This document shows positions 12,631-63,391 of a stretch of 64,000 nt of DNA, piece after piece (the stretch's first letter is position 1; each line of letters opens with the position of its first letter). The notes under the pieces are model-generated. The model was not told where the DNA came from and did not search any database. It saw only the letters and a list, made by a program, of their open reading frames with translations. Source of the stretch: a virus (lineage: Duplodnaviria > Caudoviricetes). The stretch is taken from positions 5,324 through 69,323 of the IMG/VR virus record IMGVR_UViG_3300004481_001312; one strand, given 5' to 3'. The translations under genes and the position numbers were made by a program.

Positions 12631-14641
12631 AGGACATCACCTTTAGCCGGTTGATGGTCTCCGGGGCCGAGAACATGGTTTCGACGTCTATGGGGTCATA
12701 GGAGATTCCCCGTACCAGTAGGTCACGGCAATGCTCCTCGACCAACGCTACGAACAGCCGGTCATCGATCCCGAACTCCGACCCGACACCGGAGAATTCA
12801 TCACGCCACGCTCCTGCGAGGAACGTCGCGATCTTCTGCGACCCCGAAATCGGTCCGTGATGCACGTGCAACTGATAGGAGGGCACCCCGGCTGGCCGTT
12901 TCGAGTGCGGTACTAGGCGAGTTCCGGCGATACCGAGCGCACGACGGATAGCCAACTGCGCCGCGAATGACAATCCTGGTGGTGCCGTTGGTGGCCCTGC
13001 AGGGGGCGGTCCCTGGCCATCCTCGCCCCCCTCCTCCTCAACCTCGGGCTCTTCGGGGAGGGTTTCCTCCTCCTCGGTGGGCTGTGTCTCCTCCGTGACC
13101 GTGGTGGTCGTGGGGACCGGTGCCTCAACCGTTTGGGCCTTTGGTAGTCCGATCAACGCCCGGAGGGTTGGGTCGGACAGGACCGCGTCGGGGGACGTGA
13201 GGAGTAGTTTCTCTACGAGTCGCACGGAGCGCTCGGCTGGGGATGGGGCGTCCCCGTCGGACCACGACGACGCTGCCCTGGTTACGGCGTCTGACAACAG
13301 CATGCGGTCGTGGAGGTCCTTGGCGTCCCCGGACCGGTCGGGGTTTGTGGTCAATGGCGAGGTGTCGAACGCGTAGAAGTAGCCGTTCGGGTCCTCGCCC
13401 ATCGCTTCGAGCGCGGGTACGAGGTAGCCGGTGGTGAGGGCCGCTGCGATGCGGGTCAACACCGGTTTGATGTGGATCTGTACGGCCTCGCGGCTGATAG
13501 CCCAGGCGTTCCAGTGGTTTGTCGACGAACCTAACCCGATCAGTACCTCTGGTGGGATGTCCAGCGACTGGGCTAGTGAACGGAGTGCGCCTTCCCGCAT
13601 CGTCCCAATCTGCGCAGACAACTCCGACCACAACGTGATGTGTCGGATCTTCTCGATATCGTCGCCTGGGCCGGTGATGATGATCGGCACCATGGCCTCA
13701 GCCGATGACCGGTCCCGCAGCGATCGGGACATGACCCGGCCTAGGAGCGCGGAGAACCCAGCGGCCCCGGCCGGGTCGTCGTCGCCCCGGGGGAGTTCCA
13801 GCGATTCGGGGAGCGCGAACACGCCGGCCCCGGACAGCCGGCTGTCCAACTCAGCGAATTCGCGTTTCCGCAGGGCCTCCATCTCGCGGAGGTCAGGGAT
13901 CGCGGATCGGGTTGCCGAGTCTGGTTCTGACGTGTCGGCTGGGTGTGGTGTCCACACCCGGAGGATCAGGTCGATGCCCTCGCGGTATTCCATGATCCCG
14001 CCCCCGTGCACCGGGGAACGGATGACCGTGATCGTGTCGCCCTGCCTTTTGATCTGCCGGGATGTGACGACCCACCAGAGGTCTTCGCCGTCCTCCCCGC
14101 CCCCGGACTGGGCGACCACGTACGCCTCGCCGGGAACGAACAGGTCGATACCGAGGAGGCGCAGCGCCTCGGCCTTCGCGTCGCCGGTACCGAGCGGCCC
14201 GGCTGCGAGCTCTGCTACTGGGCCGGTATCGACGCGTTCGCCGGGGGACCCGTCCGGGTTGGCCTTGGCGACGTACAGGTTACAACGGGAGACCGAGTTA
14301 CCTACCCAGTTCGCGACGAATCGGAGTTGTCCGGTTATGTCGTACAGGCGCCACGCGTCGGCCTGCCATGCCCTGTCCCCGAATCGGTAGGAGCGCCACG
14401 ACGCGCCATCCATGGACAACCGGGACACGGCCGCTGTGACCGACGTGCCAGGTGATCCGTCTGCGAGCGCTCGACGCGCCGAGGACGTGACGATCTCCCG
14501 GAACCGGTTTGTCGTGGTGTCGGCACCCCGGAAACGCCAGAGGACCGGTGGTGAGAACAGTCCGTCGATCTCCTCGCGTAGGACCGGGTCGACCTCGCCA
14601 ACCGCGCGTAGTTGCCGCTTCCTCTGCCGCAGTTTCATCAT
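12623..14641 (-). CDS. Portal protein
   Basis: WQADAWRLYDITGQLRFVANWVGNSVSRC and NHWNAWAI motifs of actinophage portals; lies between terL and MuF; start inferred from the ATGA overlap at 14641. Confidence 0.8.
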   Translation of the reverse strand: MMKLRQRKRQLRAVGEVDPVLREEIDGLFSPPVLWRFRGADTTTNRFREIVTSSARRALADGSPGTSVTAAVSRLSMDGASWRSYRFGDRAWQADAWRLYDITGQLRFVANWVGNSVSRCNLYVAKANPDGSPGERVDTGPVAELAAGPLGTGDAKAEALRLLGIDLFVPGEAYVVAQSGGGEDGEDLWWVVTSRQIKRQGDTITVIRSPVHGGGIMEYREGIDLILRVWTPHPADTSEPDSATRSAIPDLREMEALRKREFAELDSRLSGAGVFALPESLELPRGDDDPAGAAGFSALLGRVMSRSLRDRSSAEAMVPIIITGPGDDIEKIRHITLWSELSAQIGTMREGALRSLAQSLDIPPEVLIGLGSSTNHWNAWAISREAVQIHIKPVLTRIAAALTTGYLVPALEAMGEDPNGYFYAFDTSPLTTNPDRSGDAKDLHDRMLLSDAVTRAASSWSDGDAPSPAERSVRLVEKLLLTSPDAVLSDPTLRALIGLPKAQTVEAPVPTTTTVTEETQPTEEEETLPEEPEVEEEGGEDGQGPPPAGPPTAPPGLSFAAQLAIRRALGIAGTRLVPHSKRPAGVPSYQLHVHHGPISGSQKIATFLAGAWRDEFSGVGSEFGIDDRLFVALVEEHCRDLLVRGISYDPIDVETMFSAPETINRLKVMSCG

Positions 14642-14970
14642 TTCCGCCCGTATGCGTAGATCATGCCGGTAACTTGCGAAACCGCGAACGCCAGCACGAT
14701 GACCAAGACGATTGGGGTTGTGCCCCACAGGTAGATGATCGGCGAGGTTATGTAGCCGATCCAGATAGACACGCACCACGGGCAACCAGTGGCGTCTCCA
14801 TCCGGTTCGCCAAGGAGGTAGACCAGTAGTCGGTGCGTTCGGCGATGTGGGTCGAATCGTGCGATGAGACGCTCGCGAACCTGGCGCGTGATCTCGTCAT
14901 GTGTGATCAACGTGGTTGCCCGCGTTACCGCTAGGGCGTACAACGCCAACACGACAACAGACGGCATCAT
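14638..14970 (-). CDS. DUF1360-like membrane protein
   Basis: RATTLITHD, CPWCVSIW, hydrophobic segments. Confidence 0.7.
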   Translation of the reverse strand: MMPSVVVLALYALAVTRATTLITHDEITRQVRERLIARFDPHRRTHRLLVYLLGEPDGDATGCPWCVSIWIGYITSPIIYLWGTTPIVLVIVLAFAVSQVTGMIYAYGRK

Positions 14971-15398: not shown

Positions 15399-17078
15399 TT
15401 ACATGGCCAGCGGCCCGAACCCCCCACCACCGGACGGTCCCCGGTCCAGGGGCGATGAACCCGTGGTCGGAAGCGAACCACCCGGAGCGGCGGATCCACC
15501 CGAACCGCTTTTCGGGATCGGCAAAAGCGCGTACGCGAGGTACGTACTCGCGTCGATCCGCCCCGGAGAATCCGACGATCCCTCTTGCCACGTCGCCCAC
15601 TCCTCCTCGACCTCTGGTAGGTACGCGGCCGTCCGTACCCGGTCCTCCACCCACTGTTGGGCGATTGGGTCCGCACGCAACCTTTTGTTCTTCCGCGCCG
15701 TTACTGCCTTGATCCGGGGACACAGCCGCCCGTACCGCAGGGTCATCCGGTCAACGACTCGTTCAACTTCCCGAGCGGTCAGATGCGGCTGATCATCCAT
15801 TACACGGTTCCGGGCCGCCTCCCGCTCCTCGGATTGCAGTGACGACCACGCGGTTCGGATCATCCGACCCGCCATGTCGCCACCGAAATTCCTCTCAAAA
15901 ATGATCATGTCAGCGTCGATGTCCACGGCCATCTCGCACGCGGTTTTCGACCACGCGTCCGACGACATCGCCCCGGACGCGTCACGTAGTAGGTACAGGC
16001 GCTTATCAGATCCTAGGTAGCCTCCGATAATCCCTGCCACGTCCCTACCACCACCGGACGGGTCAACGGACACGGCGGTACGGACCGGCGACGTGTCGCA
16101 CGGATGGCACGAAGACCCGTTCGTGTAGCACCGACGTTCGCGGAGGAGTTCACGGGTGAGGAGCGCGCCCTCAGCCGGTTTCGGGTCGCACATGTACAGG
16201 GCGTGCCAGTCCTGGACGGTTGACGCCCGGCGCTTGTCATGCCAATGGGCGGCTGCCCGAGCTGTGTCGCCCAGCCGGATTTTTGGGTGTGGGAGTGGGT
16301 CACCGAGTTTCCGGTGTAGCGGGTCGCGTCCCGGGTCGTCGCAGAACGCTGGCATGCGCACGACCTCCCACCGGCCTCCCTCGGCCGTGGTCCCCTCGTC
16401 AGCGACGACCCGGGACGCGAGGTCATCCGGGTGCCATGGGGTCATGACCATGATCATTGGAGCGCCGGGGGATAGCCGGCTGATGATGTCGGCGCTCAAC
16501 CACCGGTACGCCCGGTCGCGGAACCGTAGCGAATCCGCTTCGGCCCGGCTCTTATGCGGGTCGTCAATGAACGCGATGTCGCCAGGCTTCCCAGTCACGC
16601 CAGCCCCGATCCCGACGGACAGGACACCTCCACCGGTAATCAGGTGCCAGTCCTGCACCGCCTCGGAACCACGGGAGAGAGCCAGACCGAACCGGTGTCC
16701 GTGTTCCTCGATAATGCGTTTCGAGTCGCGGCCCCGGTCCACGGCCAACGAATCGCCGTACGAACCGATGATTACCTTCGCTTCTGGGCGGTTCGCGAGC
16801 CACCAGACAGCGCCACCTACCACGGCGGTCAGGGTTTTACCGGTTTGTGGTGGGACTGTGATCAACAGTCGGTCGATCTCTCCAGACATGATCCGGAGCA
16901 TTTGCTTCGTGATCACGTCGAGGTGGGGGCGGAGTCGGTAGCCGGGGACTACCCGACGAAGTAACGCGGCCGGGTCAGACAACGCAGAGCGGTCCTCGGC
17001 CGCTTCTATGGCTTTAGCCTCTGCCATCAGTTCCGCGTCGCTCATGATGGAGGGATCACGGAGCGCTCGTTTCACCAC
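15399..17078 (-). CDS. terL: Terminase large subunit
   Basis: VPPQTGKT Walker A variant, IAFIDDPHK Walker B, VSVDPSGG nuclease acidic motif, SPGRIDA. Confidence 0.92.
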   Translation of the reverse strand: MVKRALRDPSIMSDAELMAEAKAIEAAEDRSALSDPAALLRRVVPGYRLRPHLDVITKQMLRIMSGEIDRLLITVPPQTGKTLTAVVGGAVWWLANRPEAKVIIGSYGDSLAVDRGRDSKRIIEEHGHRFGLALSRGSEAVQDWHLITGGGVLSVGIGAGVTGKPGDIAFIDDPHKSRAEADSLRFRDRAYRWLSADIISRLSPGAPMIMVMTPWHPDDLASRVVADEGTTAEGGRWEVVRMPAFCDDPGRDPLHRKLGDPLPHPKIRLGDTARAAAHWHDKRRASTVQDWHALYMCDPKPAEGALLTRELLRERRCYTNGSSCHPCDTSPVRTAVSVDPSGGGRDVAGIIGGYLGSDKRLYLLRDASGAMSSDAWSKTACEMAVDIDADMIIFERNFGGDMAGRMIRTAWSSLQSEEREAARNRVMDDQPHLTAREVERVVDRMTLRYGRLCPRIKAVTARKNKRLRADPIAQQWVEDRVRTAAYLPEVEEEWATWQEGSSDSPGRIDASTYLAYALLPIPKSGSGGSAAPGGSLPTTGSSPLDRGPSGGGGFGPLAM

Positions 17079-17101
17079 GGCCCCTCCCAGTTGTTGGTGG
17101 T

Positions 17102-17842
17102 CTACCCGCCCATCATGATCACTCCTAGTCTGGTTGTCATGCTGAACCCGGCACGAAGAGCCGATGGTGCCAACTTCTGGCCGGTCCGGATTATGTCCAC
17201 GTACTCCGTGCCGAGTGGATATACCCACACTCGGTAGGGGTTTAGATGGTAGTCGGTGCAGAACAGCCGAATAGCGTCTATGTCAGTCGTATCTTGGCAC
17301 GGGAACAGGAATTCGGCTCTTGGGCTACTGGTGAACCATCGCAGAGCCGATGTGTACACCCGTTTCTGTGTTGGGTCAGACGCCAAAGCGCCGAACAATT
17401 TTGGGGATACCCTCCACCGGATTTTGTCTAGCTCGTCGAGGTCTTTCAACCACGGACGCGGGTTGATCGTCCCGTTGGTTTCCACGTACACCGTCCGTCC
17501 AACATCGACGCACCCTTCGATGAGGCAGCGCAACGCTGGACCCTCCTGCTGCATCAGAGGTTCGCCACCGGTGACGACGACCCTGCCGACTGGAAATACC
17601 TTTCCGGCCTTGTCAAGGCGGTCGAGAAACACGCCAACGCGTATAGGTCTGCTCATCGTGTGCGGCCCCCATGTCGATGGTTGGTCGCACACCTCGCATG
17701 TGAGGTTGCATCCGGCGAGGCGAACGATCGCGCAACGCCTGCCGGCGTCCGGCCCTTCCGTGATTATTGTGTCGGTGCGGAACTCGTTCGCGTAGAGAAC
17801 AGCGTCCCGGCCGGGGTCCGGACCGTCCTCGGCCCCCATCAC
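17102..17842 (-). CDS. queE: QueE-like radical SAM protein (7-carboxy-7-deazaguanine synthase family)
   Basis: VRLAGCNLTCEVCD (CxxxCxxC), TGGEPL, VETNG, VSPK. Confidence 0.85.
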   Translation of the reverse strand: MMGAEDGPDPGRDAVLYANEFRTDTIITEGPDAGRRCAIVRLAGCNLTCEVCDQPSTWGPHTMSRPIRVGVFLDRLDKAGKVFPVGRVVVTGGEPLMQQEGPALRCLIEGCVDVGRTVYVETNGTINPRPWLKDLDELDKIRWRVSPKLFGALASDPTQKRVYTSALRWFTSSPRAEFLFPCQDTTDIDAIRLFCTDYHLNPYRVWVYPLGTEYVDIIRTGQKLAPSALRAGFSMTTRLGVIMMGG

Positions 17843-26567: not shown

Positions 26568-27632
26568 ATGACTACTTGGTTGATCGACATTTCGAATCAT
26601 CAGGGCGCGTTCGACGTTGGTCGGGCTGTGTCCGAGGGCTACTCCGTGGTGTGGATGAAGGCCACGGAGGGAACGTCGTTCCGCGATGGAAGGTTTGACA
26701 CGTTCGCTGCGCAGACGATCGCTGCCGGTGCCTTGCCGGGTGCGTACCACTACCTACGGTCGGGGTCCGGTCGGTCGCAGTGCGAGGCGTTCTACGGACG
26801 CCTCGTGGATCATGGAGGCCCTGGTGGGTGGCTCGCAGCATGTGACAACGAGGCGGACGCCGGTTGGCAGACGACGGTGGACTTCTTCGCCAGGTGGCGT
26901 GAACTTGCCGGAGATCACCCGTTGTTCATGTACTCGGGTAATTGGTGGTGGGGTTCTCGTGGGTGGAATGGCGCCTCGTTGACGCCGTACCTGTGGGATT
27001 CTCGGTATGTGTCGGGGTCTGGGCTGGGGCCATCGTTGTATGGGAAGGTCCCTGGTTCGTGGTGGTCACCCCGGTATGGAGGCTGGGGAAATGTGACGAT
27101 TCTTCAATTTTCATCGTCCGGTGTTGTTGCCGGGCGTCCGATCGACGTGAACGTGTTTCGTGGGTCGGTGGACGAGTTACGTGCCCTCGCCAGGATCGGT
27201 CCGAAAACGCCAACGACGTCGGGAATAGATGAAATGCAGAGTCTTGTCAGATGGATCGGTTCGAACGCTGTGATGCTTACCAACGGCATTAATGCCCGGT
27301 GGGTAACTACTGAGGACGAGATGAATGGGCTTCGCGCGCTGCTCGGAGACGTCAGGGTTGTTGACACCAAGGAGCCATGCGGTCAGATTGTTGGGCCGCG
27401 TCCGATCGAGTGGGGACATGACCCAGCTGAAGAGTCGAGGGTTGCCGCCATGGCGGCCCGGGACCTAGCCCAGCAGACCCTCGATCGGGTGTTGGCCATG
27501 GAGATCGGAAATGTCGACGTCGGGGCACTAGCCATCGCTCTGGCGTCGGTGCTTCCGGTTCCGGTGGTTCCAAGCGCGGCGGAGGTCGCTGACGCTGTCG
27601 CGGACGAGGAAGCGTCCCGGCTCGCTGAGTAG
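26568..27632 (+). CDS. Endolysin, GH25 muramidase
   Basis: IDISNHQG, MKATEG, GAYHY, DNE (DxE), LQFSS, IDVNVFRG; GAGGAGG RBS. Confidence 0.92.
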   Translation: MTTWLIDISNHQGAFDVGRAVSEGYSVVWMKATEGTSFRDGRFDTFAAQTIAAGALPGAYHYLRSGSGRSQCEAFYGRLVDHGGPGGWLAACDNEADAGWQTTVDFFARWRELAGDHPLFMYSGNWWWGSRGWNGASLTPYLWDSRYVSGSGLGPSLYGKVPGSWWSPRYGGWGNVTILQFSSSGVVAGRPIDVNVFRGSVDELRALARIGPKTPTTSGIDEMQSLVRWIGSNAVMLTNGINARWVTTEDEMNGLRALLGDVRVVDTKEPCGQIVGPRPIEWGHDPAEESRVAAMAARDLAQQTLDRVLAMEIGNVDVGALAIALASVLPVPVVPSAAEVADAVADEEASRLAE

Positions 27633-42360: not shown

Positions 42361-42801
42361 TTAAAAGAGAGTTAGCTTGTCGTCACTCTCCGGGGAGGTT
42401 TCCATGGCTGGCTTCGGCGAGACTTCGCGCGAAGTGCTCATGTTCTGTCGGATGACCGACAACATCTCGTCACGTTCTACACGTTCGGCCTGGGTCATCA
42501 TGCTTTCTGCCAGGTCCTCACAACTGGTGATGATCGATATGTTTCCGGCAACACCATCGAGGTCGTGTCCGGGTGCGGCCCGGCGCGACCGGACGTTGAT
42601 GACGTTGACGAGCCGGGCGCGTACGGCGTCGTGGCACTTCTTGCAAATGTTCGGGGCGTCGTCCATACGGGCTTTGCGAGAAGTGATGATCACGCCAGAC
42701 CCGGAGTTGCAGTAGGCCAGGCCATCGGCGATGACGAGGTGGAGGCGTGCCCCGCGTCGGGTGGTGACGTATCCCATCTCGACGTCCCAGATCTCGCTCA
42801 C
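42361..42801 (-). CDS. Hypothetical protein
   Basis: H..C...CKKC motif. Confidence 0.55.
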   Translation of the reverse strand: MSEIWDVEMGYVTTRRGARLHLVIADGLAYCNSGSGVIITSRKARMDDAPNICKKCHDAVRARLVNVINVRSRRAAPGHDLDGVAGNISIITSCEDLAESMMTQAERVERDEMLSVIRQNMSTSREVSPKPAMETSPESDDKLTLF

Positions 42802-42910
42802 TTTTACTCCCCGGCCGTTGTTGTGTAGCTCCAAGTTTAGTTGATAGCATAGAAACGCGCAACCCAAGGGTTCGCATTTATGACCAGCCAAAGTCACCAT
42901 GGAGGTACCT

Positions 42911-43510
42911 ATGACCACCAACGAAACCAGGCAACTCTACTGTGTGATCGACTCGCTACAGAACGACGTCGCGAACCGTGATGCCCTCATCGAGTCACTA
43001 GAAAAGACCATCAACGCACTACACGAGGAGTTGCGCTGCCGTGACGTAGATGAACTGACCGGCATGCACAACCTCCGGTGGCTTAGGGAATTCTGGTCCG
43101 GCCTTCGCCAGCCATCCCAGACGATCGGAGCCGTGGCGTTCATCGACGTAGACCTGTTAAAGCGGGTCAACGACACCTATGGCCACAAGATTGGCAACCG
43201 GGTGATCACCCATGTCGCGGCCGTGCTCATCTCGTCCGGGTGCTATGGCGTCCGGTACGGGGGTGACGAGTTCCTTCTCCTCATTCCGGCCGGCTGGGAC
43301 GCAGCCGCCACCATCAACAAGATCATCGACGAGATCTCGGCGTGTCCTATCCCGACCAGGGACGGTGAGATCACTGTCGTCGTGTCGTGTGGAGCGCGGG
43401 TGGTCAAGGACGACATCGATCTTTACAAGATGATCCATGACGCTGACGTGGCCATGTACGAGGTGAAGCGCGCCCGATCCGGTGCGGCCGGGTGCCGACT
43501 CGTCGAGTAG
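42911..43510 (+). CDS. GGDEF-domain dinucleotide cyclase with N-terminal coiled coil
   Basis: DELTGMHN, FIDVDLLKRVNDTYGH, RYGGDEF, VSCG, ADVAMYEVK; GGAGG RBS. Confidence 0.95.
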   Translation: MTTNETRQLYCVIDSLQNDVANRDALIESLEKTINALHEELRCRDVDELTGMHNLRWLREFWSGLRQPSQTIGAVAFIDVDLLKRVNDTYGHKIGNRVITHVAAVLISSGCYGVRYGGDEFLLLIPAGWDAAATINKIIDEISACPIPTRDGEITVVVSCGARVVKDDIDLYKMIHDADVAMYEVKRARSGAAGCRLVE

Positions 43511-43524
43511 CCGGTCACGGCGGA

Positions 43525-43570
43525 ACGGAACGGCCCGGCCTGGTCACGACGACTGGCCGGGCCGTTCCGT
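43525..43570 (+). terminator. Hairpin after the GGDEF gene
   Basis: ACGGAACGGCCCGGCC-loop-GGCCGGGCCGTTCCGT. Confidence 0.7.
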
Positions 43571-43675
43571 GTAACCCAACAGATAAGTACTCACCATAAA
43601 GTTGCGGATTTATTTGTGGCACGGTAGACTCACGGGGACGCACGAAAACGCCGCGATACACACCGAGGAGAAGCC

Positions 43676-44920
43676 GTGAACCTAGACATCACCACCATCA
43701 GCAACATGTGGGGGGAGTATGGGCACTACGCGATCGTCGCGGCCCTCGGAATCTCCCTCGCCCTCCTCATCGCCACAATCCGACGCGTCACAGGACGCAA
43801 GACCACCACCAAAGACCGTGACGTACTCAGCAACGCCGTTACCCTCATGGTCCTAGCCCTCACGGCCGAGGGAATGTTCTGGGTCCTCACAACCAAGTTG
43901 TCCATGCCCCTTCCCTGGTGGCTCGCAATATTCGTGTGCGCCGTGGCCGAAGGATTGATGGTCAACTTCTTTAGGCTCGCCAAGGACTTCCAAGACCGCC
44001 ACGGCCGGCCCGGACCGTTCGGTACCGCGTTCTGGATCGTCGCCATCGCCGAAGGCGCGATAGTCGCCCTCGCCTCCAACAACATCGTCGAAATCGCCCT
44101 GCGCATACTCCTCCCCCTCGGCGTGGCACTCCTCCACTGGATAAAACTCACAGCCGAGAACAGCGAGGAGAACCGGGGTCAGTTCCTGTGGACCCCCCTC
44201 AACCTCATGATCCGACTCGGCGCGTGGAAGCCCGGGAAAACCACCATCACCGAGGCCGAGGCCAAGAGGTTCGAGGAAAAACTGACGAACGCCGCGTACA
44301 TGCTCGCATCAGCGCGGTGCTTCAAGAATCGCAAACGTCGCAGGGTCCGGAAGATGATGCTCAAGGCCGACCCAACAACCGCAGCATCCGTGATCGCGCA
44401 CCTCGAACTCGCCTACGGCATTGAGGCACGCATCGCGGCCGTCACGAAAACCGGTACAGAGGCAGTCAAGGCCGCCAGCGGAACCCAGACCCCGGCTATA
44501 GATACCACCGCAGGCGTGGATGCACTCCCAGTGGCCACCAACGGCCACCGGGACAACGGCAATCCCGTCCTCGACATCCAGGCAACCCCGGTCAACGGCC
44601 ACCGGCACAATGGCAACCAGCCCGCACTCGCCAGCACACCAGCGCGCAGGACTATGACAGCCCTCGCCATGACCACGGCCGAACGCGACGCTGATATCGT
44701 TATCCGCCACTGGGACGCACTGACCGGCCTTATACAGGCCGGCACCCTGTGCCGATCCGCGATCGAACGCGCGTGCACCGTCGGAGACGACAAGGTGCTC
44801 GCCCGGCAGGCGAAGCGTGTCCTGGACATTATGACCTGCGCGAATACCCTCGACTCTGGCATGTCGATCGAGGAACGGGTTGCCATGGCAATCAAGATGA
44901 TTGCCAACGGACAGAGGTGA
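43676..44920 (+). CDS. Spd/DUF2637-like multi-pass membrane protein (plasmid-spreading type)
   Basis: About five N-terminal TM segments, a WTP..L..RLGA motif and a low-complexity C-terminal region. Confidence 0.55.
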   Translation: MNLDITTISNMWGEYGHYAIVAALGISLALLIATIRRVTGRKTTTKDRDVLSNAVTLMVLALTAEGMFWVLTTKLSMPLPWWLAIFVCAVAEGLMVNFFRLAKDFQDRHGRPGPFGTAFWIVAIAEGAIVALASNNIVEIALRILLPLGVALLHWIKLTAENSEENRGQFLWTPLNLMIRLGAWKPGKTTITEAEAKRFEEKLTNAAYMLASARCFKNRKRRRVRKMMLKADPTTAASVIAHLELAYGIEARIAAVTKTGTEAVKAASGTQTPAIDTTAGVDALPVATNGHRDNGNPVLDIQATPVNGHRHNGNQPALASTPARRTMTALAMTTAERDADIVIRHWDALTGLIQAGTLCRSAIERACTVGDDKVLARQAKRVLDIMTCANTLDSGMSIEERVAMAIKMIANGQR

Positions 44921-44928
44921 CCACCACC

Positions 44929-45068
44929 ACCACGGCCCCCGGTATACCGCCGGGGGTCGTGTTGTATGTCTGGTCTGGAGGATCACCCAGAAGGATGACC
45001 GGTATGGCTTGGATAGCCCTAACGCGTCATGTAGACTATGGGCATGACGCAGAACACGAACACCACCG
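44929..45068 (+). repeat. 140-bp terminator-promoter-gene-start module, copy 2
   Basis: See 30801-30940. Confidence 0.92.
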
Positions 45069-48613: not shown

Positions 48614-50857
48614 GTGAAACACCCCACCACAAAAACAACCAGCCACGTCCCGTCCTACGCGTTGATCGGCCTCCTCGGGCCGGTCGTAACGGCACTCGCC
48701 TGCCAGACCATCCCGGGTATTCCGGCCGCAGTACCAACAGCGGCCGGCGTGCTCCTCGCCATCGTCACCTACGCGGCCCGGAACACCCGGTCGACAACGG
48801 CGACCAGGGCCGCCCTCACGGCCCTGTTCGTCGCGGCCGGCTCGATCTGGGCTAGCGTCGCGGCTACGGCCGGGATCACTCCCCTCGGGTGCGTGGTCCT
48901 CGCCGTTGGCGTAACCATCGGAACAATGGTCATGCTCGCCATACCAATTCCACTCACCAAGGAGGAACTCGAAGCGATCGCTGCGGCCGAGGCAGCGGCA
49001 CTCGCGGAGGCCGAGGCTGCGGCTGCGGCTGCCGACCCCAACTATGGGCTTCCAGCTGGCCGGACCAGGCAGGAAGAGACCATGCAGGCCCTACTCCGCC
49101 GTTTGTCCAATACCAACATCTCAGTCGTAAAAATCGAATCGTGGGAGACCCCGGACGACGGCATGGACATCCGGGTGTCCCTAGTTGAGGGAATGGAACC
49201 AAAGGACCTCGTAAACCTATGCGGAAAGATCCAATCAACTCCGCAACTCCGACTTCCGCAGGGATGTGTAGTAACTGTCCTCGACGGGGACTACCAATGC
49301 GAGGCCGTTATACGGGTCATGCTCCGTGACTGCCTCAAGGACCACATCATTTTGGATGAGTACGAGTCGGCAACCCCAGCCTCGATCAATGACCCGTTCC
49401 CACTGATGCGCTCCCCACAGGGCAACTGGTTCACGGTCTGCCTCCGCATCTTCTGCATGATCGTCGGTGGAACCACGGGTAGCGGTAAAACCACCCTCCT
49501 CAACCGGATCATCGCCTATTTGGCGAGATGCACCGACGCGCTAATCTGGGTAGTCGATTTCAACGGCGGCGGACTCGGCGCGCCGTGGAACCGACCTTTC
49601 GAGGAGGGAAAAACCACCAAGCCGATCATCGACTGGTTGGGCGACACCGAAGAGGAATCAGCCGTGATCATGGCATGCGCGAAGGGTATCGCGAAGGGCC
49701 GCAAAACCGACCGCGAATCAGTTCAAATGCGCCGTGACGCAGGCACTAACGTCCTTCCCCTAAGCCCCAAAAAGCCTGCCATCGTCGTCCTCACAGACGA
49801 GGGCGGGGAGGTACGCCAGGCCGCCAACGTCCTCGGCCAGATCGTCTGCTCGCAAATCTCTAGCCTCGCCCAGATTGGTAGGGAAACCGGAGTTCGCGTA
49901 ATAATGTCCGTACTACGCGGTACCGCAGACCTATTGGACAAGGCACTTCGCACCGTGTGTTCCATCCGGGTGTGCCTCCGCATGGACGAGGAAGGCGAGT
50001 ACGACCACGTCCTAGGCCGCAACCCGGGACGTGTACGCCTCATGCACACCGGTTCCGCATGGATCTACCGGACAACACAGGACTACCGGCCAGTCGTCGG
50101 CCGGTCGGTCGATGTTCCCCCCGCGTTCGTCGAACAGCACGCTATCGACTGCGCGAACCTACGACCAGACCTCGACAAGGCCGGTCAGGCCATATGCGCC
50201 AACATCAAACTTACAGACGTGTTCGCCGGACGCGACCCGGGGAACTACGAGGAGTTGTTGGACCACCCGGCGCTCGTCGATGTCACCACCGGAACCGCCT
50301 ACACCAGGCGGCACCAGCGGCGCGCCGAACGCCTCTCCGCGATAGAACGTGGCGAGGACCCCGACAGTCAGGCCGGCCGTCGTACGGCGACCACGGACGT
50401 CCCAACCGCACCACGCGCCAGTTCCGCCACAGCGAGTCTTCTTAACCAGGTCGACAAATTGGGAACTGGTAGGAAATCGGCCCCTGCGGCACGCGCCACA
50501 GCGCCAACAACGACACCGTCCGAAACCGATGTGTTCAATGCGCTGACCAGCGGAAAGCACCTAATGCTCGAAGGGCACTGCCCGATAGACACTACCAACA
50601 CCACTTTCCCGGCATCGGCCCCGACGACCGGGGAGACCATCCCCGACGCGCCAACCACGACGCTCCGCGAGCGCCTCAACCTGATGCTGACCGACATCTA
50701 CCCAAATGGCCTCAAGGCCGGGGAGATCGAGGCGACCCTGAAGGCCGAGGTGTTCCGGTACTCCAGGGGAAATCTGTTCGAGGTGCTGAAGGCCATGGTC
50801 GGGAAGCACGGCGAGTTGGACAAGGTAGACGACCGGTACTACCGGACGCTCGTCTGA
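48614..50857 (+). CDS. traB: TraB-like FtsK/SpoIIIE conjugative DNA translocase
   Basis: N-terminal TM segments, Walker A GGTTGSGKT, Walker B IVVLTDE, LAQIGRETGV, C-terminal winged-helix-like domain. Confidence 0.85.
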   Translation: MKHPTTKTTSHVPSYALIGLLGPVVTALACQTIPGIPAAVPTAAGVLLAIVTYAARNTRSTTATRAALTALFVAAGSIWASVAATAGITPLGCVVLAVGVTIGTMVMLAIPIPLTKEELEAIAAAEAAALAEAEAAAAAADPNYGLPAGRTRQEETMQALLRRLSNTNISVVKIESWETPDDGMDIRVSLVEGMEPKDLVNLCGKIQSTPQLRLPQGCVVTVLDGDYQCEAVIRVMLRDCLKDHIILDEYESATPASINDPFPLMRSPQGNWFTVCLRIFCMIVGGTTGSGKTTLLNRIIAYLARCTDALIWVVDFNGGGLGAPWNRPFEEGKTTKPIIDWLGDTEEESAVIMACAKGIAKGRKTDRESVQMRRDAGTNVLPLSPKKPAIVVLTDEGGEVRQAANVLGQIVCSQISSLAQIGRETGVRVIMSVLRGTADLLDKALRTVCSIRVCLRMDEEGEYDHVLGRNPGRVRLMHTGSAWIYRTTQDYRPVVGRSVDVPPAFVEQHAIDCANLRPDLDKAGQAICANIKLTDVFAGRDPGNYEELLDHPALVDVTTGTAYTRRHQRRAERLSAIERGEDPDSQAGRRTATTDVPTAPRASSATASLLNQVDKLGTGRKSAPAARATAPTTTPSETDVFNALTSGKHLMLEGHCPIDTTNTTFPASAPTTGETIPDAPTTTLRERLNLMLTDIYPNGLKAGEIEATLKAEVFRYSRGNLFEVLKAMVGKHGELDKVDDRYYRTLV

Positions 50858-52007: not shown

Positions 52008-52255
52008 CCAACCCAAAAGGATGGAACCTAGCAACGGAAACGAACATCAACCCGATCGTCACGATCGTTGAACTCGTTTCCATCACAGGGCTTAGCCGTT
52101 GGACCGTCCGGGAAATGCTAGTCCGCTACCAGGTACCACCACTCCCAAGAAACGGAACCCGTGACACCATCCGATACCAACGCCAACACGTCCTCTCCGC
52201 TATCGAGTCAATGACCGGAAGAGGAAACAGAAACCGAAGGAGCAAGCAGCCATGA
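52004..52255 (+). CDS. Small HTH protein (excisionase-like)
   Basis: VTIVELVSITGLSRWTVREML..IRYQRQHV. Confidence 0.6.
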   Translation: MTNPKGWNLATETNINPIVTIVELVSITGLSRWTVREMLVRYQVPPLPRNGTRDTIRYQRQHVLSAIESMTGRGNRNRRSKQP

Positions 52256-52800
52256 TGACGCAGACCCATGGCGTGACCGGTCTAGCAATGTGGATGTCCG
52301 GCGACGCACTTGCCCGCGCACTCGGCGCAAACCATCCTTACTACGTGACAATCGCCGGTGCCCTCATAGCGTGGGGTGCCGCGAAGGCACCCGACATCGA
52401 CAACCCCAACAGCCGACCCGGCCGGCAGGTCAACAAACTGATCCCCGGACTTAGCGACATGATCGAATCTGTGGTTGGCCACCGTGGCCTCACCCACTGG
52501 GCCAGCACCGGCATAGCCAACGGAGTAACCCTGGGTGCCATCGCCTCACTCATCAACCCGTCGATGTGGTGGATCGGCCTCGCCGTGACAATCGGCTGGC
52601 TCACCCACATAGCCGGGGACTGCTGCACCTACCGTGGGGTGCCGGCGTACGGTCCGTTCAACCTAGATCCGATCCGCCTGCCATACGGATACCGAATCGA
52701 GTGCGGAGGTCAGATCGAGACCAGAATCGTCTACCCACTGACCGTCGTCTGGGCACTATCGGTGTTCACGACGTCGGTTGCGCTCACAGTGTTCTCTTGA
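52252..52800 (+). CDS. YdjM-like membrane metal-dependent hydrolase
   Basis: TH, PDID, HRGLTH, H..GDCCT..GVP motifs. Confidence 0.88.
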   Translation: MMTQTHGVTGLAMWMSGDALARALGANHPYYVTIAGALIAWGAAKAPDIDNPNSRPGRQVNKLIPGLSDMIESVVGHRGLTHWASTGIANGVTLGAIASLINPSMWWIGLAVTIGWLTHIAGDCCTYRGVPAYGPFNLDPIRLPYGYRIECGGQIETRIVYPLTVVWALSVFTTSVALTVFS

Positions 52801-52814
52801 TAGGTGACCCACCA

Positions 52815-53111
52815 ATGAAAATGATCATTCTTTCGCTTGTAGTGGTCGTCCCACTGATGTTCACCGTTGGTGCCACCATCGGATACCGCGCCGGGCTACG
52901 CCGGAACCAGGCCCTCAGCCTCCGCACCCTCGGCCTGTCCACCACAACCGTCAACCGCTACCGAGACGCTATGCGTCTTCTCAACGGCATGGTCGAGGCG
53001 ACCATCCTCGACGGGCCGTTCGCTGGAAACATACTGACCAGCATCACCGAAACCGAGGCCCGGAGACTCGTCACCGGGTACCGCAACGAGATGGGAATCG
53101 CCAACCGATGA
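52815..53111 (+). CDS. Small membrane-anchored protein
   Basis: N-terminal TM segment; ATGA overlap with the next gene. Confidence 0.55.
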   Translation: MKMIILSLVVVVPLMFTVGATIGYRAGLRRNQALSLRTLGLSTTTVNRYRDAMRLLNGMVEATILDGPFAGNILTSITETEARRLVTGYRNEMGIANR

Positions 53112-54124
53112 ACCGCCACGTACGAACACTCATCGCCCTCGGCCTGGTCGCCGTAGCAGCGTCGACAACGGCCGGGTGTTCCACCCGCGCGAATTCCGAC
53201 GAGATCATCCTGTACTACGCGTCGGGTGCCGGGGAGAACAAGCAGTTCAAGGAGTGCATCAAACCCGGCGAATCCGGGTCGTACCCCATCGACGATGAGA
53301 TCTACGCCCTACCAACTAGCCAGCGCACGTGGAACATCCGGCCGGCCGGTGGCGACTCGAAAGATCCGATCACGTCTGGTTCAAAACCGTCTGCCGACGG
53401 TCAACCAGGACCGTCCGTTTCGGTCTTCGCCACGGCCGACTTCTACCTCAACGTCGACTGCGCCGGGGGTGAGTCGTCCCCAATCGTGCAGTTCTGGGAG
53501 CGAACCGGACGCCGGTACGGAATCGCGTCGGACGGCGAGGACGGATTCGACCAGAAAAAGTGGATCACGATGTTGATGAACACCTTAGTCCCGGCCGAGG
53601 AGAAGGCGCTGCGCGAGCAGACCATGCGGTATCTCGCGGACGATCTGGATGCAAACCTCGGGTCCGTGTGGTCGAAAATCGAGGCCCAGTTGGGGGACAC
53701 GTTCATGGCAGAGTTGAAGGCGAAGCTGGGTGGCGAGTTCTTCTGTGGCACCGGGTACGCCGGTGGCCGGAAGACCACCTGGGATGAGCTGGTCATGAAT
53801 ACGGACGGCACCACGGGGACGCGGAAGGCCGAGGGGACCTGCCCACCGATCCGAGTCTCGATCTCAGACATCAACTTCACTGACGCTGGCATCGCCGAGG
53901 CGCGGAACAAGGTGTATAAGGCCAAGACCGAGGCGGAGGCAGCATTGATCGCGGCACGGGCCGATGTGGACAAGGCCGCCCTGTTGTCGAAGGCCGCGAA
54001 CGACCCTGCGTACCTTCGGCTCAAGGAGATCGAGGCGCAGTTGGAAGCCGCGAAGGCTTGCGCCGCGAACCCGAACTGCACCCTAGTCATTGGCGCTGAC
54101 GGAGTCGAGGTAGGAAAGAAGTAA
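53108..54124 (+). CDS. SPFH/band-7-like lipoprotein
   Basis: Lipobox-like TAGC, C-terminal Ala/Glu coiled coil (AEAALIAA..DPAYLRLKEIEA). Confidence 0.7.
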   Translation: MNRHVRTLIALGLVAVAASTTAGCSTRANSDEIILYYASGAGENKQFKECIKPGESGSYPIDDEIYALPTSQRTWNIRPAGGDSKDPITSGSKPSADGQPGPSVSVFATADFYLNVDCAGGESSPIVQFWERTGRRYGIASDGEDGFDQKKWITMLMNTLVPAEEKALREQTMRYLADDLDANLGSVWSKIEAQLGDTFMAELKAKLGGEFFCGTGYAGGRKTTWDELVMNTDGTTGTRKAEGTCPPIRVSISDINFTDAGIAEARNKVYKAKTEAEAALIAARADVDKAALLSKAANDPAYLRLKEIEAQLEAAKACAANPNCTLVIGADGVEVGKK

Positions 54125-59600: not shown

Positions 59601-59828
59601 ATGCCGATACAGCCGGCACACGACCTCGCTTCTTGACGCCAACCCCGGTGGCGGTTCGGTCGTGACGACGCTTAACCAGGTAACACCGTTGACGGCCGAG
59701 TAGAAGTCCTCGGTCGCGACGAATCGATACCCAACCTCCGACCCGGTGTCAATAACAGTCGACTCCTCGACCAGGGGAACGAACTGGTTCCCGATCACGA
59801 ACGGCTTATAGGTGTCGTATATCGCCAT
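56655..59828 (-). CDS. Large minor tail protein (multidomain)
   Basis: Start MAIYDTY overlaps the tape-measure stop; beta-rich domains, Dit-like region (RDLAWDAIPYVCVRDE). Confidence 0.7.
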   Translation of the reverse strand: MAIYDTYKPFVIGNQFVPLVEESTVIDTGSEVGYRFVATEDFYSAVNGVTWLSVVTTEPPPGLASRSEVVCRLYRHDPLDTCTPLQKLIIPCTAGSGGSIGGGAANRAAAVANPSDPMYVRLTGASQTARFWFGTDSATVADVLNLWHVEIVDVSVIYSISGPFATATTNTMSCGMERQAGPIKRYMDYLVTGPAGSSSITTMKRSRFGELSQFWDSGTNPNTDYLRGPWSYKGDDDTGLYAMSGAGTDDVAVFFETGVGASGDFDIHYVGLQIMYRENYHLVGVGGMDLSGGADIKEGLYTYRCPLMPADSPWAYTGGGGISIISMAKGDSYTITVSRAYSGSMSVSSPVPIPLSLINTVDPHIPGLVGVRITKPTAEGAMPVYSETTDYPAIVMYDASPTLWATEMIPANVNPACHTYEQQMPQALHDGGYFYSEQQIPNDTAGTFVWATFYARASASVNSGLHISQTDGAGTFLGPDGMIDYATWLALPEIVDGWKKVTVAISPVAVLTGAGGVTYWQLWTGSGELLIWEVLGATANHTVTTTGSSSGAVGGYHGESAVANFIGTENYPLDISITLAQEMSVVSNFAVTTATQELTVIDEYCGVTVSTIPSGIVYNHLAWDPVLTAMVSGWAYYEIQRRDTTMDIGVWETIAKITNPYVGEMDDYEARIGVMSSYRIRTVHTTGIEGPWSAEVTSTIPAPGVTGVGVGIGLLVFTSNEDPAANLAYVHIHGDAEESFDFIESGQGSLEPVYGRDYQVSLRPTERGGVTFTRTLLVNKAGIPTGTLDRGFTSLRDLAWDAIPYVCVRDELSNRWLANVSVPSGSIRRQDGRSTHYQVSAVTITEVAGVPYAHDIEIPFLGLASTQNLQRYGSISSCDPLATLEDIDIRVKFIALQGGVGWGFYVFRYYVGPPESWWAFGMSNNDGSEAYFQSLGDDGFFSEELSIPAPIFGQPIWARCVYDHDTGYGFSEATFYSSIDGVTWTTHGTIVAGPAGLVPSTGGVFYVSALESTVVQEMIVIDTATSTTLMSPDFAAQTATTTSFVDAQGNTWNINVW

Positions 59829-62800
59829 CAGATGCTCCTTACCAACGTGGCCGTCTTCGACCGGTTCAGCTCGGCAGCGATTCCCTGCCCAACGGCTGCC
59901 CCAGTCGACGTTGCCTGCGCCGTGGTCGGCACGACCCCCTGGAATGAGACGTTGATCGACCCTGGCTGGAACACGATCGATGACCCACCGGATAGGTTCC
60001 CGGCTATCGGGGCGAGGCCTCCGGCGAGACCACCAGCTGGAGCTGTAAGTGCCGCGTCCGCAAGTCCCCACGCAGCTGCCCGAAGTTTCGGGACTCGTCC
60101 CTCCATCCCGGCAGCAACCATGGTAACGATCTTTCCACCGGCGATAGTCGGATCACCATTCCCAGACAGGGGGCCTTCCTTCGCTGGGCTGAACGGAAGG
60201 GCGTTTCGTATGGTTTGTGCTGCGTCAGATATTTTTGCCCTTAGTGCGCCAATACGTGACGAGATTCCATTAATTAGTCCATTTATTACATTTTGACCGG
60301 CACCATAGAGAAGTGAAGCCAGATTTCCAACAGCCCCAATAATCTGTCCAGGAAGCGCGCGCACAAAGCTGATCGCGGTGTTCAGCTTGTCTCTAATGGC
60401 GTTGACGACCATTTGGAAATAGCTAGAAATGCTATTGACAAACGATGTCAATAAACTCGCTGCTTGTACAATGTATCCGATTTGTGTCCGCACTGCTGTG
60501 ACAATCGAATTGAAGATTGCCACAACAACGCCCCACAACCAGGTTAGAATGGCCGCGAATCCAGTTGCGAACGGACTAATTGCGTTAGTCCACAACCAAG
60601 TGAACATTTCTCCAATTGCAGATAGCACGGGTTGTATGACACCCCATAGCCATCCGAACAAGGCTCCCAGCGCCGTCAGGATCGGAGACGCTATAGAGTT
60701 CCAGATCCACATAAATATTCCAGCCACCAACATAAAGTTGAGTTTTAGGTTCGCCCACCAAAGTTGAACAACGGCCCACACGGCAGCGAAAGCCAGTTTC
60801 AAAAGATCAAAAACTACTGAGATTGTACCCGACCATACCGTCCACATTAGGTTTCCTATAGCCATGAATATGGGGCTGAATGTATTCCAGAACCACATGG
60901 CAATAGACACAACGACGCCAATAGCGGCACCTATAAACTTGAACACTGGCTGGATAATAGACGACCAAATCCAGGAAACTACCGCACCGATACCCTGGAA
61001 CGCGGGAACAAACACCGACGACCACAGCCAAATAATCGCCGTACCAACCGCACCAAGAACTGTGCCAATCACATTGAACACGGGCTGAATAATCGACGAC
61101 CAGAGCCATTGAATGACACCAGCGACTACCTGAATAGCCGAACCGATACCTGTAAACACTGGAACAATAATTGTCGACCACACCCATTTAATGATCGCAC
61201 CAATTGCCGTGAACACAGTAGTAATCACAGCCCATAGCACCTTCACAATTGCAATAACGACAACCACTGCGGCAACAATGATTGCGCCAAGGACAACCCA
61301 TACTGGTTTCATAGCGACAATAACATCCACAACAGTTTTGATAACCGCCACGATAGCCTTAAACGCCGGAATCAGTACGTTCACGACCACCCATGTCACG
61401 ACGGCCGCAACGGCCTTCAATACCGCCATGAACGCCGACCACACCTGGAACGCCACGCTCCCGAACCACGTCACGACGGCCGCTGCCGCCCTCATCACCG
61501 TGTCTCCGTTCCCAGACCACCACGACCGAACCGCCACGGCCACCCGCGCGAACAGACCCATCAGAGATGTCAACGCAGGCTGCGCCGTACCCGTCCAGAA
61601 ACCGGAGATCGCGGATCCCGCAGACTTGAACGAATTACCGATGGCCACGAGCGCGGGTTTGATAGCAGAGTTCCAAATGCGCATCACGGCAGCGCCCCAA
61701 GCGACGAATACCGGCTGCGCCTGCTGCCACAACCTGGAGATAGCGGCCCCGACGACCTTCGCGTTCGCGACAATCCAGTTGAACGCCGGAACGATCGCGT
61801 TCTGCCACATCCACATAGCAGCCGTGGCAACGGCCCGGAACGCCCGGTCGACAACGGCCCGGAACGCCTCGCACTTCTGATATGCGACCACGGCCGCGAT
61901 GCCGAGGGCGACGATCGCGGCAATCACCCATCCGACAGGTCCGCTCAGTGCCGACAACCACGGAGCGACCTTCAGCGCCCATGTACCAAACTTCTTGAAC
62001 GCCAGAATTCCTTCACCGATCGCTGTAGCCATGCGGCCAAACACGGCGAGGAACGGGCCAATAGCCGCAGCGACGATCGCGACAACAGTCATGATCTTCA
62101 GGAACGTTGGAGACAACTTCGACGCGTTCATGGTCAACTCGGTTAGTTTGTCAGTCAATGCTGTCATCCACCCGAGCAGACCAGCGTCCCCAACAGCGAT
62201 CATCAGTCCCTCGGCCGCAGACGTCAGTTCGTCCATCGACCCGTTGAAACCAGCCATCTGGGTCGTCGCCACCTTTTGCGCAGTTCCCCCAGCATTCTGC
62301 AACTCCAACGTCAATTGGCCTAACGCAGTCGACCCCTGGGAGACGAGGGCCTGCATGGCCGGCCCAGCCTCCAACCCAAAGATCGTCATCATATCTGCGG
62401 TGTCAGCACCGCTCTTCTCCAACTGACGCACAATATCGATCAATGGAAGAAGTTTCCCCGATGAGTCGACAACGGCCACACCAAGAGCTTTGAGTGTAGT
62501 TCCAATTTCACCCGTTGGTTTCAACAACCGGCTTATCGCCCCACGTAGCGCGGTACCAGCCTCACTACCCTTGATACCCGCGTTTCCCATCAACCCAATT
62601 GCGGCGGACAATTCCGTGAACGACACACCGGCTGACGATGCTACCGGACCAACGTATTTGAACGTCTCACCCAGGTCTTTCAGTGACGTCGCTGTAGATA
62701 GGAACGCGCGTGCGAGTATGTCATTGACCCAACCAATCTTCGACGTCTTAAGCCCATACCCGTTGAGTATGTTTCCGGCTATCTCCGCAGCCTCTGCCAA

Positions 62801-63391
62801 ACTAACCGATCCTGCGGCAGCCATATCAAGCACACCGGGAAGCGCGGACATAATCTCGGTGGTGTCGAATCCGGCCGTAGCCAACTCGTTCATCGCGTAC
62901 GCTGCCTCGGACGCGCTAAACGCAGTCGTAGAACCAAGGTCAATCGCCAGGTTGCGGAGATTCGTGAACTCTTTCCCGCTAGACTCCGTCGCGGCCTTGA
63001 CTTTATTCATCGCTTTTTCGAAATTTCCGGCAGCGTTCATGGTCGCTACCCCGGCGATGGCGACGGGTAGGCTAATCGCCGTCGACATCTGATCACCAAC
63101 GTTCGACATCTCGCGACCAGCGGTCGCGAACGATGCGGCCATGGACTTCCCAGCCGTAGACGAACGTTTGGAGATCGTTTCAAACGTCTCCCCGGCCTGG
63201 TTCCCCAGCCGTTTTAGCTCCTGGTTCGCCGCGTTGACCCCATCACGGACGCCGTTCGAGATTTGGTCTGAAACCCCGGTCATGTCGATACGGACCCCAC
63301 GGAGCGCAGCGTTCAAGTCCCGCTGGAACGTCGCGGCGAATTTCGAGAAGTCCGCTAGGACCTCAACTGACGCCTGACCAGATCTCGCCAT
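59828..63391 (-). CDS. Tape measure protein (TP901-type core)
   Basis: 1187 aa; FEKAMNKV, DLGSTTAFSASEAA, LGETFKYVGPVA, GIKGSEAGTAL; long amphipathic Trp-periodic region; FSPAKEGPLSG end. Confidence 0.95.
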   Translation of the reverse strand: MARSGQASVEVLADFSKFAATFQRDLNAALRGVRIDMTGVSDQISNGVRDGVNAANQELKRLGNQAGETFETISKRSSTAGKSMAASFATAGREMSNVGDQMSTAISLPVAIAGVATMNAAGNFEKAMNKVKAATESSGKEFTNLRNLAIDLGSTTAFSASEAAYAMNELATAGFDTTEIMSALPGVLDMAAAGSVSLAEAAEIAGNILNGYGLKTSKIGWVNDILARAFLSTATSLKDLGETFKYVGPVASSAGVSFTELSAAIGLMGNAGIKGSEAGTALRGAISRLLKPTGEIGTTLKALGVAVVDSSGKLLPLIDIVRQLEKSGADTADMMTIFGLEAGPAMQALVSQGSTALGQLTLELQNAGGTAQKVATTQMAGFNGSMDELTSAAEGLMIAVGDAGLLGWMTALTDKLTELTMNASKLSPTFLKIMTVVAIVAAAIGPFLAVFGRMATAIGEGILAFKKFGTWALKVAPWLSALSGPVGWVIAAIVALGIAAVVAYQKCEAFRAVVDRAFRAVATAAMWMWQNAIVPAFNWIVANAKVVGAAISRLWQQAQPVFVAWGAAVMRIWNSAIKPALVAIGNSFKSAGSAISGFWTGTAQPALTSLMGLFARVAVAVRSWWSGNGDTVMRAAAAVVTWFGSVAFQVWSAFMAVLKAVAAVVTWVVVNVLIPAFKAIVAVIKTVVDVIVAMKPVWVVLGAIIVAAVVVVIAIVKVLWAVITTVFTAIGAIIKWVWSTIIVPVFTGIGSAIQVVAGVIQWLWSSIIQPVFNVIGTVLGAVGTAIIWLWSSVFVPAFQGIGAVVSWIWSSIIQPVFKFIGAAIGVVVSIAMWFWNTFSPIFMAIGNLMWTVWSGTISVVFDLLKLAFAAVWAVVQLWWANLKLNFMLVAGIFMWIWNSIASPILTALGALFGWLWGVIQPVLSAIGEMFTWLWTNAISPFATGFAAILTWLWGVVVAIFNSIVTAVRTQIGYIVQAASLLTSFVNSISSYFQMVVNAIRDKLNTAISFVRALPGQIIGAVGNLASLLYGAGQNVINGLINGISSRIGALRAKISDAAQTIRNALPFSPAKEGPLSGNGDPTIAGGKIVTMVAAGMEGRVPKLRAAAWGLADAALTAPAGGLAGGLAPIAGNLSGGSSIVFQPGSINVSFQGVVPTTAQATSTGAAVGQGIAAELNRSKTATLVRSI

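Follow-up and report, generated by a model that had tools for sequence, protein, structure and literature searches.

In the GGDEF-family cyclase PleD, guanine is read by the residue pair Asn335 and Asp344, and the Asp at the second of these positions is conserved in strict c-di-GMP producers (PMC9140294). The Hypr class, which accounts for 0.17% of GGDEF domains, has Ser or Thr at the D344 position and works with cGAMP riboswitches (PMC9140294, PMC6456294). Manipulation of c-di-GMP by phages is known, since the Yip peptide activates YfiN (PMC11461919). Phage-borne GGDEF genes have also been annotated, such as those for the short GGDEF-only protein of Pseudomonas phage YuA (PMC10333796) and the 'diguanylate cyclase' of Bacillus phage SP-15, but in the literature that we searched none was found to have been characterised. 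Here we describe a GGDEF gene from an uncultured phage lineage which, like those of YuA and SP-15, is stand-alone and short, resides in a tailed phage and has a predicted function. It differs from the annotated phage GGDEF proteins, including these two, in sharing at most about 36% identity with them and in belonging, as judged from synteny, to the fixed core genes of its lineage, with a place at a regulatory junction. The gene represents a new family within a known kind of short phage GGDEF genes, and what is new is its core status at the junction of an actinophage-like lineage together with a recurrent Asp/Asn dimorphism.

A helical stalk that is directly followed by a GGDEF domain is known from Pseudomonas aeruginosa SiaD (PDB 7e6g), the coiled-coil protein DgcB of Caulobacter (6ttr) and the engineered GCN4-WspR fusion (3i5c). 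The phage protein has the same layout and, like SiaD and DgcB, an intact active site; these two were also its best fold matches in the PDB, with TMq values of 0.73-0.82. In contrast to the three stalk cyclases, to which it is 25-26% identical, the phage protein is smaller (199 aa), phage-encoded and has Asn in place of Asp. [quoted passage not shown] With PleD (PDB 1w25, 2v0n) it shares the fold and the equivalents of D327, K332, N335, R366, the GG(D/E)EF motif and K442, while it has Asn for D344, no RxxD loop and no Rec domains. Hypr GGDEF proteins, such as Geobacter GacA (GSU1658) and Bdellovibrio Bd0367, are similar in that the PleD D344 position is varied and the motif reads GGDEF rather than GGEEF. 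However, these enzymes have Ser or Thr at that position, Rec inputs, an I-site and cGAMP riboswitches (PMC6456294, PMC9140294), none of which was found for the phage protein. Its identity as a Hypr GGDEF was ruled out by Asn100, which stands in place of the defining Ser or Thr.

Results

The cyclase gene and the phage that carries it

The window, i.e. the whole stretch of DNA that was analysed, comprises 64,000 nt and corresponds to bases 5324-69323 of a 69,323-bp IMG/VR virus record with a CheckV completeness estimate of 87%. An earlier note on this DNA had described the cyclase gene as phage-borne, and this was borne out by the following tailed-phage genes in the window:

15399-17228, minus strand: large terminase
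12623-14785, minus strand: portal
59828-63391, minus strand: tape-measure protein
26568-27632, plus strand: GH25 lysin

Dam-type and N6/N4 methylases are also encoded by the phage, and the lineage from which it comes is one of uncultured siphophages. No tyrosine integrase (PF00589) and no PilZ or EAL domains were detected in the 69-kb record. The 64-kb window was devoid of tRNA genes and of Rfam families at gathering score, and c-di-GMP and cGAMP riboswitches were found neither near the cyclase gene nor anywhere else in the window.

A separate observation concerns a gene for an SDR-type nucleoside-diphosphate-sugar epimerase/dehydratase (4720-5739, minus strand). More than 100 homologues with 47-90% identity were found on metagenome contigs, several of which measure 50-85 kb, and this suggests that uncultured contigs, probably those of phages, commonly carry the epimerase gene.

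The gene under study is located as follows:

42911..43510, plus strand: GGDEF cyclase gene, 199 aa

Translation could also begin at an in-frame ATG at 42899, with a product of 203 aa. Nonetheless, the ATG at 42911 is the likely start, because it is preceded at 5 nt by GGAGG (42901-42905) and agrees with the database gene call P0002. Residues are numbered throughout according to the 203-aa reading from 42899.

Domain architecture and active site

The protein was divided into the following features:

43046..43477, plus strand: GGDEF catalytic domain, residues 50-193, placed by Pfam PF00990, alignment to solved cyclases and Foldseek
43259..43273, plus strand: GGDEF motif G121-F125, with R119-Y120 ahead of it (RYGGDEF, 119-125)
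42917..43042, plus strand: N-terminal amphipathic heptad helix, residues 7-48, a predicted dimerising stalk (AF2, heptad count)

The earlier note had read an intact GGDEF motif and a metal-binding DxD from the sequence, and the profile searches agreed with this. Residues 50-193 matched PF00990 with an E-value of 3.3e-23 (82.7 bits against a cut-off of 23.8), TIGR00254 was matched with 85 bits against a cut-off of 37.4, and Foldseek searches against solved cyclases returned E-values from 1e-13 to 1e-16. The metal-binding segment reads IDVD (D83, D85). Within the family D83, K88, N91, R119, all five residues of the GGDEF motif (G121-G122-D123-E124-F125) and K190 are invariant. Of the guanine-reading pair the first residue is present as N91, while the second position is occupied by Asn100 instead of Asp. 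The pair that binds phosphate in PleD (K442, R446) is represented by the invariant K190 and by an Arg at +3 (R193) rather than +4, which HMMER aligns with a one-residue gap.

The four residues five positions before GGDEF, where an RxxD inhibitory site would be expected, read SSGC. All 47 family members show [S/A/T]SG[C/V/G/A] at this place and none has an RxxD site, which upholds the earlier claim that the inhibitory site is lacking. The loop that leads from the position of PleD 344 to the first Gly of the motif has 21 residues, which makes it three residues shorter than the loop of 24 residues in PleD.

The AlphaFold2 model, which was built from the family alignment, had a pLDDT of 92 and consisted of a single long helix (residues 7-48) followed by the GGDEF fold. 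The helix itself had a mean pLDDT of 92 and carried Leu, Ile or Val at 9 of 13 a/d heptad positions, as would be expected of the dimerising coiled coil that had been proposed earlier; pairing of two chains through the helix is what the heptad pattern suggests. No domains other than the helix and the GGDEF domain were recognised in the protein, and this includes the sensor domain that the earlier note had reported missing. Taken at face value, the model depicts a minimal GGDEF-family cyclase with a coiled-coil stalk, which would dimerise. The conserved active site points to catalytic activity, and the nature of the product is considered below.

A phage-specific family at a conserved divergent junction

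Database searches delivered a family of about 47-48 clusters of related proteins, all of them metagenomic, with lengths of 183-242 aa and 42-89% identity. When one genome each of 185,579 prokaryote species was inspected by a pattern scan, the best match was 39% identical and the matches were ordinary cellular GGDEF proteins; no prophage copy of the family was present in these genomes. In a collection of cultured phages the nearest protein was about 36% identical, none of the matching records was that of an actinophage, and there was no near-identity match at the DNA level. Because these values of 39% and about 36% represent the closest cellular and cultured-phage matches, the family is known only from uncultured phage contigs.

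The position of the gene was strictly conserved. In all nine contigs that span the region, down to members with 42-57% identity, the cyclase was the first gene to the right of a divergent junction. Leftward of the junction lie genes for proteins of 142-150 and 121-143 aa, and rightward the cyclase is followed by a membrane protein of 387-429 aa and, further on, by an FtsK-like protein of 706-798 aa and a YdjM-family protein. This conserved order argues that the cyclase is a core gene of this phage lineage rather than sporadic cargo. The partner gene on the other side of the junction is:

42364..42807, minus strand: divergent neighbour, about 148 aa from a GTG start, the conserved junction partner

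Syntenic counterparts of 142-150 aa were present in all relatives, with truncated or split versions in L098 and a second P0006 contig. The divergent neighbour had no match in Pfam, NCBIfam or PADLOC.

One distant relative, on an 83-kb contig, contains two extra genes between the cyclase and the membrane protein (L100:6703-7818), so the latter two are not obligatorily adjacent. The extra genes encode proteins of 218 and 149 aa, the first of which has a faint match to RHH_5.

Probable transcription signals around the cyclase gene

The non-coding sequences on both sides of the gene contain the following elements:

42808..42910, between the divergent genes: intergenic region of 103 bp with probable promoters
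42857-42875, within this region: partly palindromic element GCGCAACCCAAGGGTTCGC, a candidate operator
43525..43570, plus strand: GC-rich hairpin directly 3' of the stop codon, probably a terminator that is factor-independent but lacks a U tract

The intergenic region was conserved over eight loci, down to those with 42-57% protein identity. The partly palindromic element is unique in the window and conserved across eight related loci, and its version in L101 is a near-perfect palindrome, TGCACAACC-CGA-GGTTGTGCA. This suggests that the element may serve as an operator and that the cyclase is under transcriptional control. The earlier description of the cyclase as 'constitutive' would therefore apply at most to the protein, since a conserved, partly palindromic promoter element suggests control at the level of transcription. 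If the element at 42857-42875 is indeed an operator, the enzyme would be unregulated as a protein but regulated in its synthesis.

At the other end of the gene, a 96-nt stretch with the hairpin was calculated to fold at -53 kcal/mol (z -6.3), and a hairpin of differing sequence was present at the same place in 8 of 8 relatives examined. Judged by these signals, the cyclase gene is a self-contained cassette and a transcription unit apart from the membrane protein gene. The latter has its own promoter-like sequence (TTGCGG-17-TAGACT at 43602-43630) and a terminator at 44931-44961.

Downstream neighbours

The rightward block beyond the cyclase contains the following genes:

43676..44920, plus strand: membrane protein, 414 aa, conserved
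48614-50857, plus strand: FtsK/SpoIIIE-like ATPase, 747 aa (PHROG 31069, E 3e-45)
52252-52800, plus strand: YdjM-family membrane protein (Pfam E 1.7e-19), syntenic in relatives
53108-54124, plus strand: weakly SPFH/Band-7-like protein (E 0.002), which together with the YdjM-family protein ends the rightward block

The 414-aa membrane protein belongs to a family of 37 that is confined to this phage lineage, and it is 86% identical to its counterpart in a 77-kb relative, compared to 75% for the cyclase. The prediction for this protein comprises five helices that cross the membrane, disorder at 270-330 and a small helical domain at the C-terminus, although its AF2 model was weak (pLDDT 65). Searches of Pfam, NCBIfam, PADLOC and PDB folds gave no match, and no nucleotide-binding domain was recognisable. 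The label 'DUF2637/Spd-like' was rejected for this protein, as Pfam lent it no support even at an E-value of 5. For the 747-aa FtsK-like protein there was no significant Pfam family, just a sub-threshold T2SSE match, and among the PADLOC models it gave a modest match to mad8 (E 2.3e-9) and a weak one to HerA. The PADLOC defence models matched neither the cyclase nor its immediate neighbours.

Conceivably, the cyclase could have a role in conflict between phage and host or between phages, or could act as a non-catalytic binding scaffold, instead of serving primarily in signalling that reprograms the host. A role in conflict might consist, for instance, in superinfection exclusion, in disturbing nucleotide-based defence or in a signal to the downstream membrane protein. 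The same lineage-specific membrane protein is almost always the next gene after the cyclase, the cyclase itself is positioned at the regulatory junction of the genome, and non-enzymatic GGDEF proteins such as GdpS do exist (PMC11962490). However, neither protein has a PADLOC match, and the two genes appear to form separate transcription units that in L100 are parted by two other genes. In addition, the catalytic residues, for which a scaffold would have no need, are all invariant, and the membrane protein is without a recognisable nucleotide-binding domain. We regard this as the least probable of the explanations that were weighed, and we favour an enzyme that acts primarily in signalling.

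Asp and Asn alternate at the guanine-edge position

The residue at the second guanine-reading position is encoded as follows:

43196..43198, plus strand: codon AAC for Asn100, at the guanine-edge position of PleD Asp344

In line with the earlier assignment, alignment to solved cyclases placed Asn100, which lies within NDTYGHKIGN, opposite the Asp of the GH..GD helix. Across the family this residue was Asp in 39 of 47 clusters and Asn in the other 8, with no third residue, and the codon was either GAC or AAC in an unchanged sequence context. A sequencing error is ruled out as the source of the Asn, because alleles with this residue were recovered repeatedly, from different samples and on independent contigs (P0007 on three contigs, P0008 on two). 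On a quick protein tree, column 100 required 4 parsimony changes, all between D and N, which equals the median rate of the domain, while the neighbours of this column were frozen. All remaining substrate and metal columns showed 0 changes, except for that of R193 with 3.

A single origin of Asn was rejected on DNA trees of seven loci, both for the gene alone (AU p 0.008) and for a 2.6-kb region with both neighbours (AU p 7.6e-72), whereas the protein-only test on quick trees did not reject it (p 0.11). A caveat on the DNA trees is that the trait group was put to the test once a first tree was known. P0008, an Asn allele, is most closely related to the Asp allele P0006 (dS 0.27), from which it differs at about 6% of nonsynonymous sites. 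Values for dN/dS were 0.20-0.31 in all pairs, including pairs of two Asn alleles such as the window protein and L002 (dS 0.63, dN/dS 0.25). No residues that co-vary with Asp or Asn at position 100 were found in the family alignment.

Outside the family, Asn was rare at this position. It was present in 2 of 216 intact GGDEF domains from the 148 nearest 50%-identity representatives, a set that includes two members of the phage family, in none of about 85 domains from cellular genome loci, and in 2 of 72 other database matches. The literature searched contained no paper on Asn-variant GGDEF proteins or relevant D344 mutants, and no enzymatic data on Asn-bearing GGDEF domains.

Among the roughly 85 cellular loci, six (L033, L045, L061, L074, L075 and L082) had Ser at the specificity position, as in the Hypr type. 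All six are from Deltaproteobacteria, Myxococcales or Thermodesulfobacteriota MAGs, which agrees with the published distribution.

Taken together, these data suggest that position 100 is held to two states of near-equivalent fitness in the phage family, unlike in cellular cyclases where Asp is nearly fixed. The Asn looks like a tolerated allele rather than a committed new specificity, because 39 of 47 clusters keep Asp, GAC and AAC flip repeatedly, and no second site co-varies. An Asn enzyme would probably keep purine binding, perhaps at a lower affinity for GTP. The caveat in the earlier note, which allowed for variants with Asn to be diguanylate cyclases of an ordinary or weak kind, is the best-supported reading.

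An alternative is that Asp and Asn form a functional switch, in which the Asn enzyme is promiscuous and makes 3',3'-cGAMP and/or c-di-AMP besides or instead of c-di-GMP. The enzyme would then work like a Hypr GGDEF without being one. Position 100 corresponds to a proven specificity residue, where Ser or Thr leads to cGAMP and reversion to Asp leads to c-di-GMP (PMC9140294, PMC6456294), and all family members have the central Asp of GGDEF, never GGEEF, which is the sole form compatible with Hypr activity (PMC6456294). Seven amino acids are one base change away from Asp, of which just Asn was seen, and repeatedly; its share in the family (8 of 47 clusters) also stands against 2 of 216 among the nearest representative domains, and the Asn alleles are under purifying selection. 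On chemical reasoning, the amide of Asn could form pairs at the Watson-Crick edge of guanine (O6/N1-H) as well as of adenine (N1/N6-H), so that a wider specificity is plausible, although the sequence data do not call for it. However, no other site changes along with position 100, and the window contains no cGAMP riboswitch or other receptor. Moreover, exchange of D for S in canonical enzymes mostly inactivates them or leaves a diguanylate cyclase (PMC6456294), so that one residue is often insufficient, and the frequent flips among close relatives such as P0006 and P0008 would suit near-neutrality equally well. We therefore consider this switch unlikely. A related proposal is that both alleles are maintained as a system, with the Asn enzyme yielding another cyclic dinucleotide or a mixture (cGAMP or c-di-AMP in addition to c-di-GMP); this we consider slightly more unlikely still.

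Asn could also be a hypomorphic tuning allele, by which some phage lineages would bind guanine more weakly and so reduce the output of an enzyme that has no feedback site, or the site could be mutationally hot. In the latter case, a G-to-A change at the CpG-containing codon GGCGACCGG would recur and be only mildly deleterious. Consistent with this, every switch is explained by one GAC-to-AAC transition in an identical context, and the rate of change at site 100 equals the domain median amid frozen neighbours. The absence of the I-site from the family and the rarity of Asn in cellular GGDEF domains (none of about 85 at genome loci, 2 of 216 among nearest representatives) would fit as well. On the other hand, Asn persists over long branches, as the window protein and L002 show, and this speaks against a clearly deleterious state. 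We give this explanation less credence than either form of the product switch, though more than a role in conflict or as a scaffold. Two nearly interchangeable alleles remain the reading that we prefer for position 100.

Host affinities

The terminase and the lysin were nearest to those of Saccharomonospora phage PIS 136 (44% and 40.5% identity), followed by phages of Gordonia, Mycobacterium and Rhodococcus; overall, the nearest cultured relatives, with hosts in these four genera, were 34-44% identical. The FtsK-like protein was nearest to those of the Streptomyces phages Hiyaa, Spocter, Keanu and Galactica and of Thermobifida phage P1312, at about 30% identity. Because the terminase, the lysin and the FtsK-like protein all show affinities to actinophages, the host is likely to be actinobacterial (Actinomycetota). 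The earlier note went further and looked to Streptomyces or Micromonospora, where sporulation might be delayed through BldD and RsiG so as to keep mycelium available for transfer. These proposals found no direct support. The nearest phages infect Saccharomonospora, Gordonia, Mycobacterium and Rhodococcus, and we regard the BldD/RsiG targets and the mycelium argument as speculation.

Discussion

We consider it probable, with moderate confidence, that the gene encodes a minimal, feedback-free cyclic-dinucleotide cyclase, of which the dose is set by transcription, Asp and Asn at position 100 are nearly interchangeable alleles, and the likeliest product is c-di-GMP. This reading starts from the sequence features, the predicted fold, the synteny, the allele distribution and the purifying selection described above, and from these we infer dimerisation, catalysis, product, regulation and an effect on the host along the following lines. 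The N-terminal heptad helix of about 40 residues would pair two chains and thereby hold two complete GGDEF domains together. Each domain would bind one purine NTP-Mg via D83, D123, K190/R193, N91 and residue 100, and E124 would act as the base. As the RxxD loop is absent, the product should be unable to feed back on the enzyme, and in the absence of a sensor domain the output would be set by transcription from the conserved, operator-like promoter region. The c-di-GMP made in an infected or phage-carrying cell could then reprogram c-di-GMP-controlled behaviour of the host. Asn at the guanine edge would represent one of two alleles that the family tolerates and switches between. What speaks against this reading is that Asn may cost GTP binding or change specificity, because Asp is conserved in strict c-di-GMP producers and Asn was present in just 2 of 216 representative domains. 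The lack of PilZ, EAL and c-di-GMP riboswitches in the record, the failure of the protein-only AU test to reject one origin of Asn, and the shift of R193 by one position relative to PleD R446 count against it as well.

The cyclase gene belongs to the fixed core of an uncultured, actinophage-like lineage that is abundant, and it would offer a clear example of a bacterial second messenger being made by a virus. The close pairs of Asp and Asn alleles, as in P0006 and P0008, are a natural experiment on Asn at the nucleotide-specificity position. Should Asn turn out to be equivalent to Asp, the equation of Asp344 with c-di-GMP needs widening, whereas a changed product would define a new class of promiscuous GGDEF enzymes. 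Should the two-allele product switch be true, related phages would address different host signalling or defence pathways by the flip of one base, and Asn would constitute, besides Ser and Thr, a second natural route to altered GGDEF specificity.
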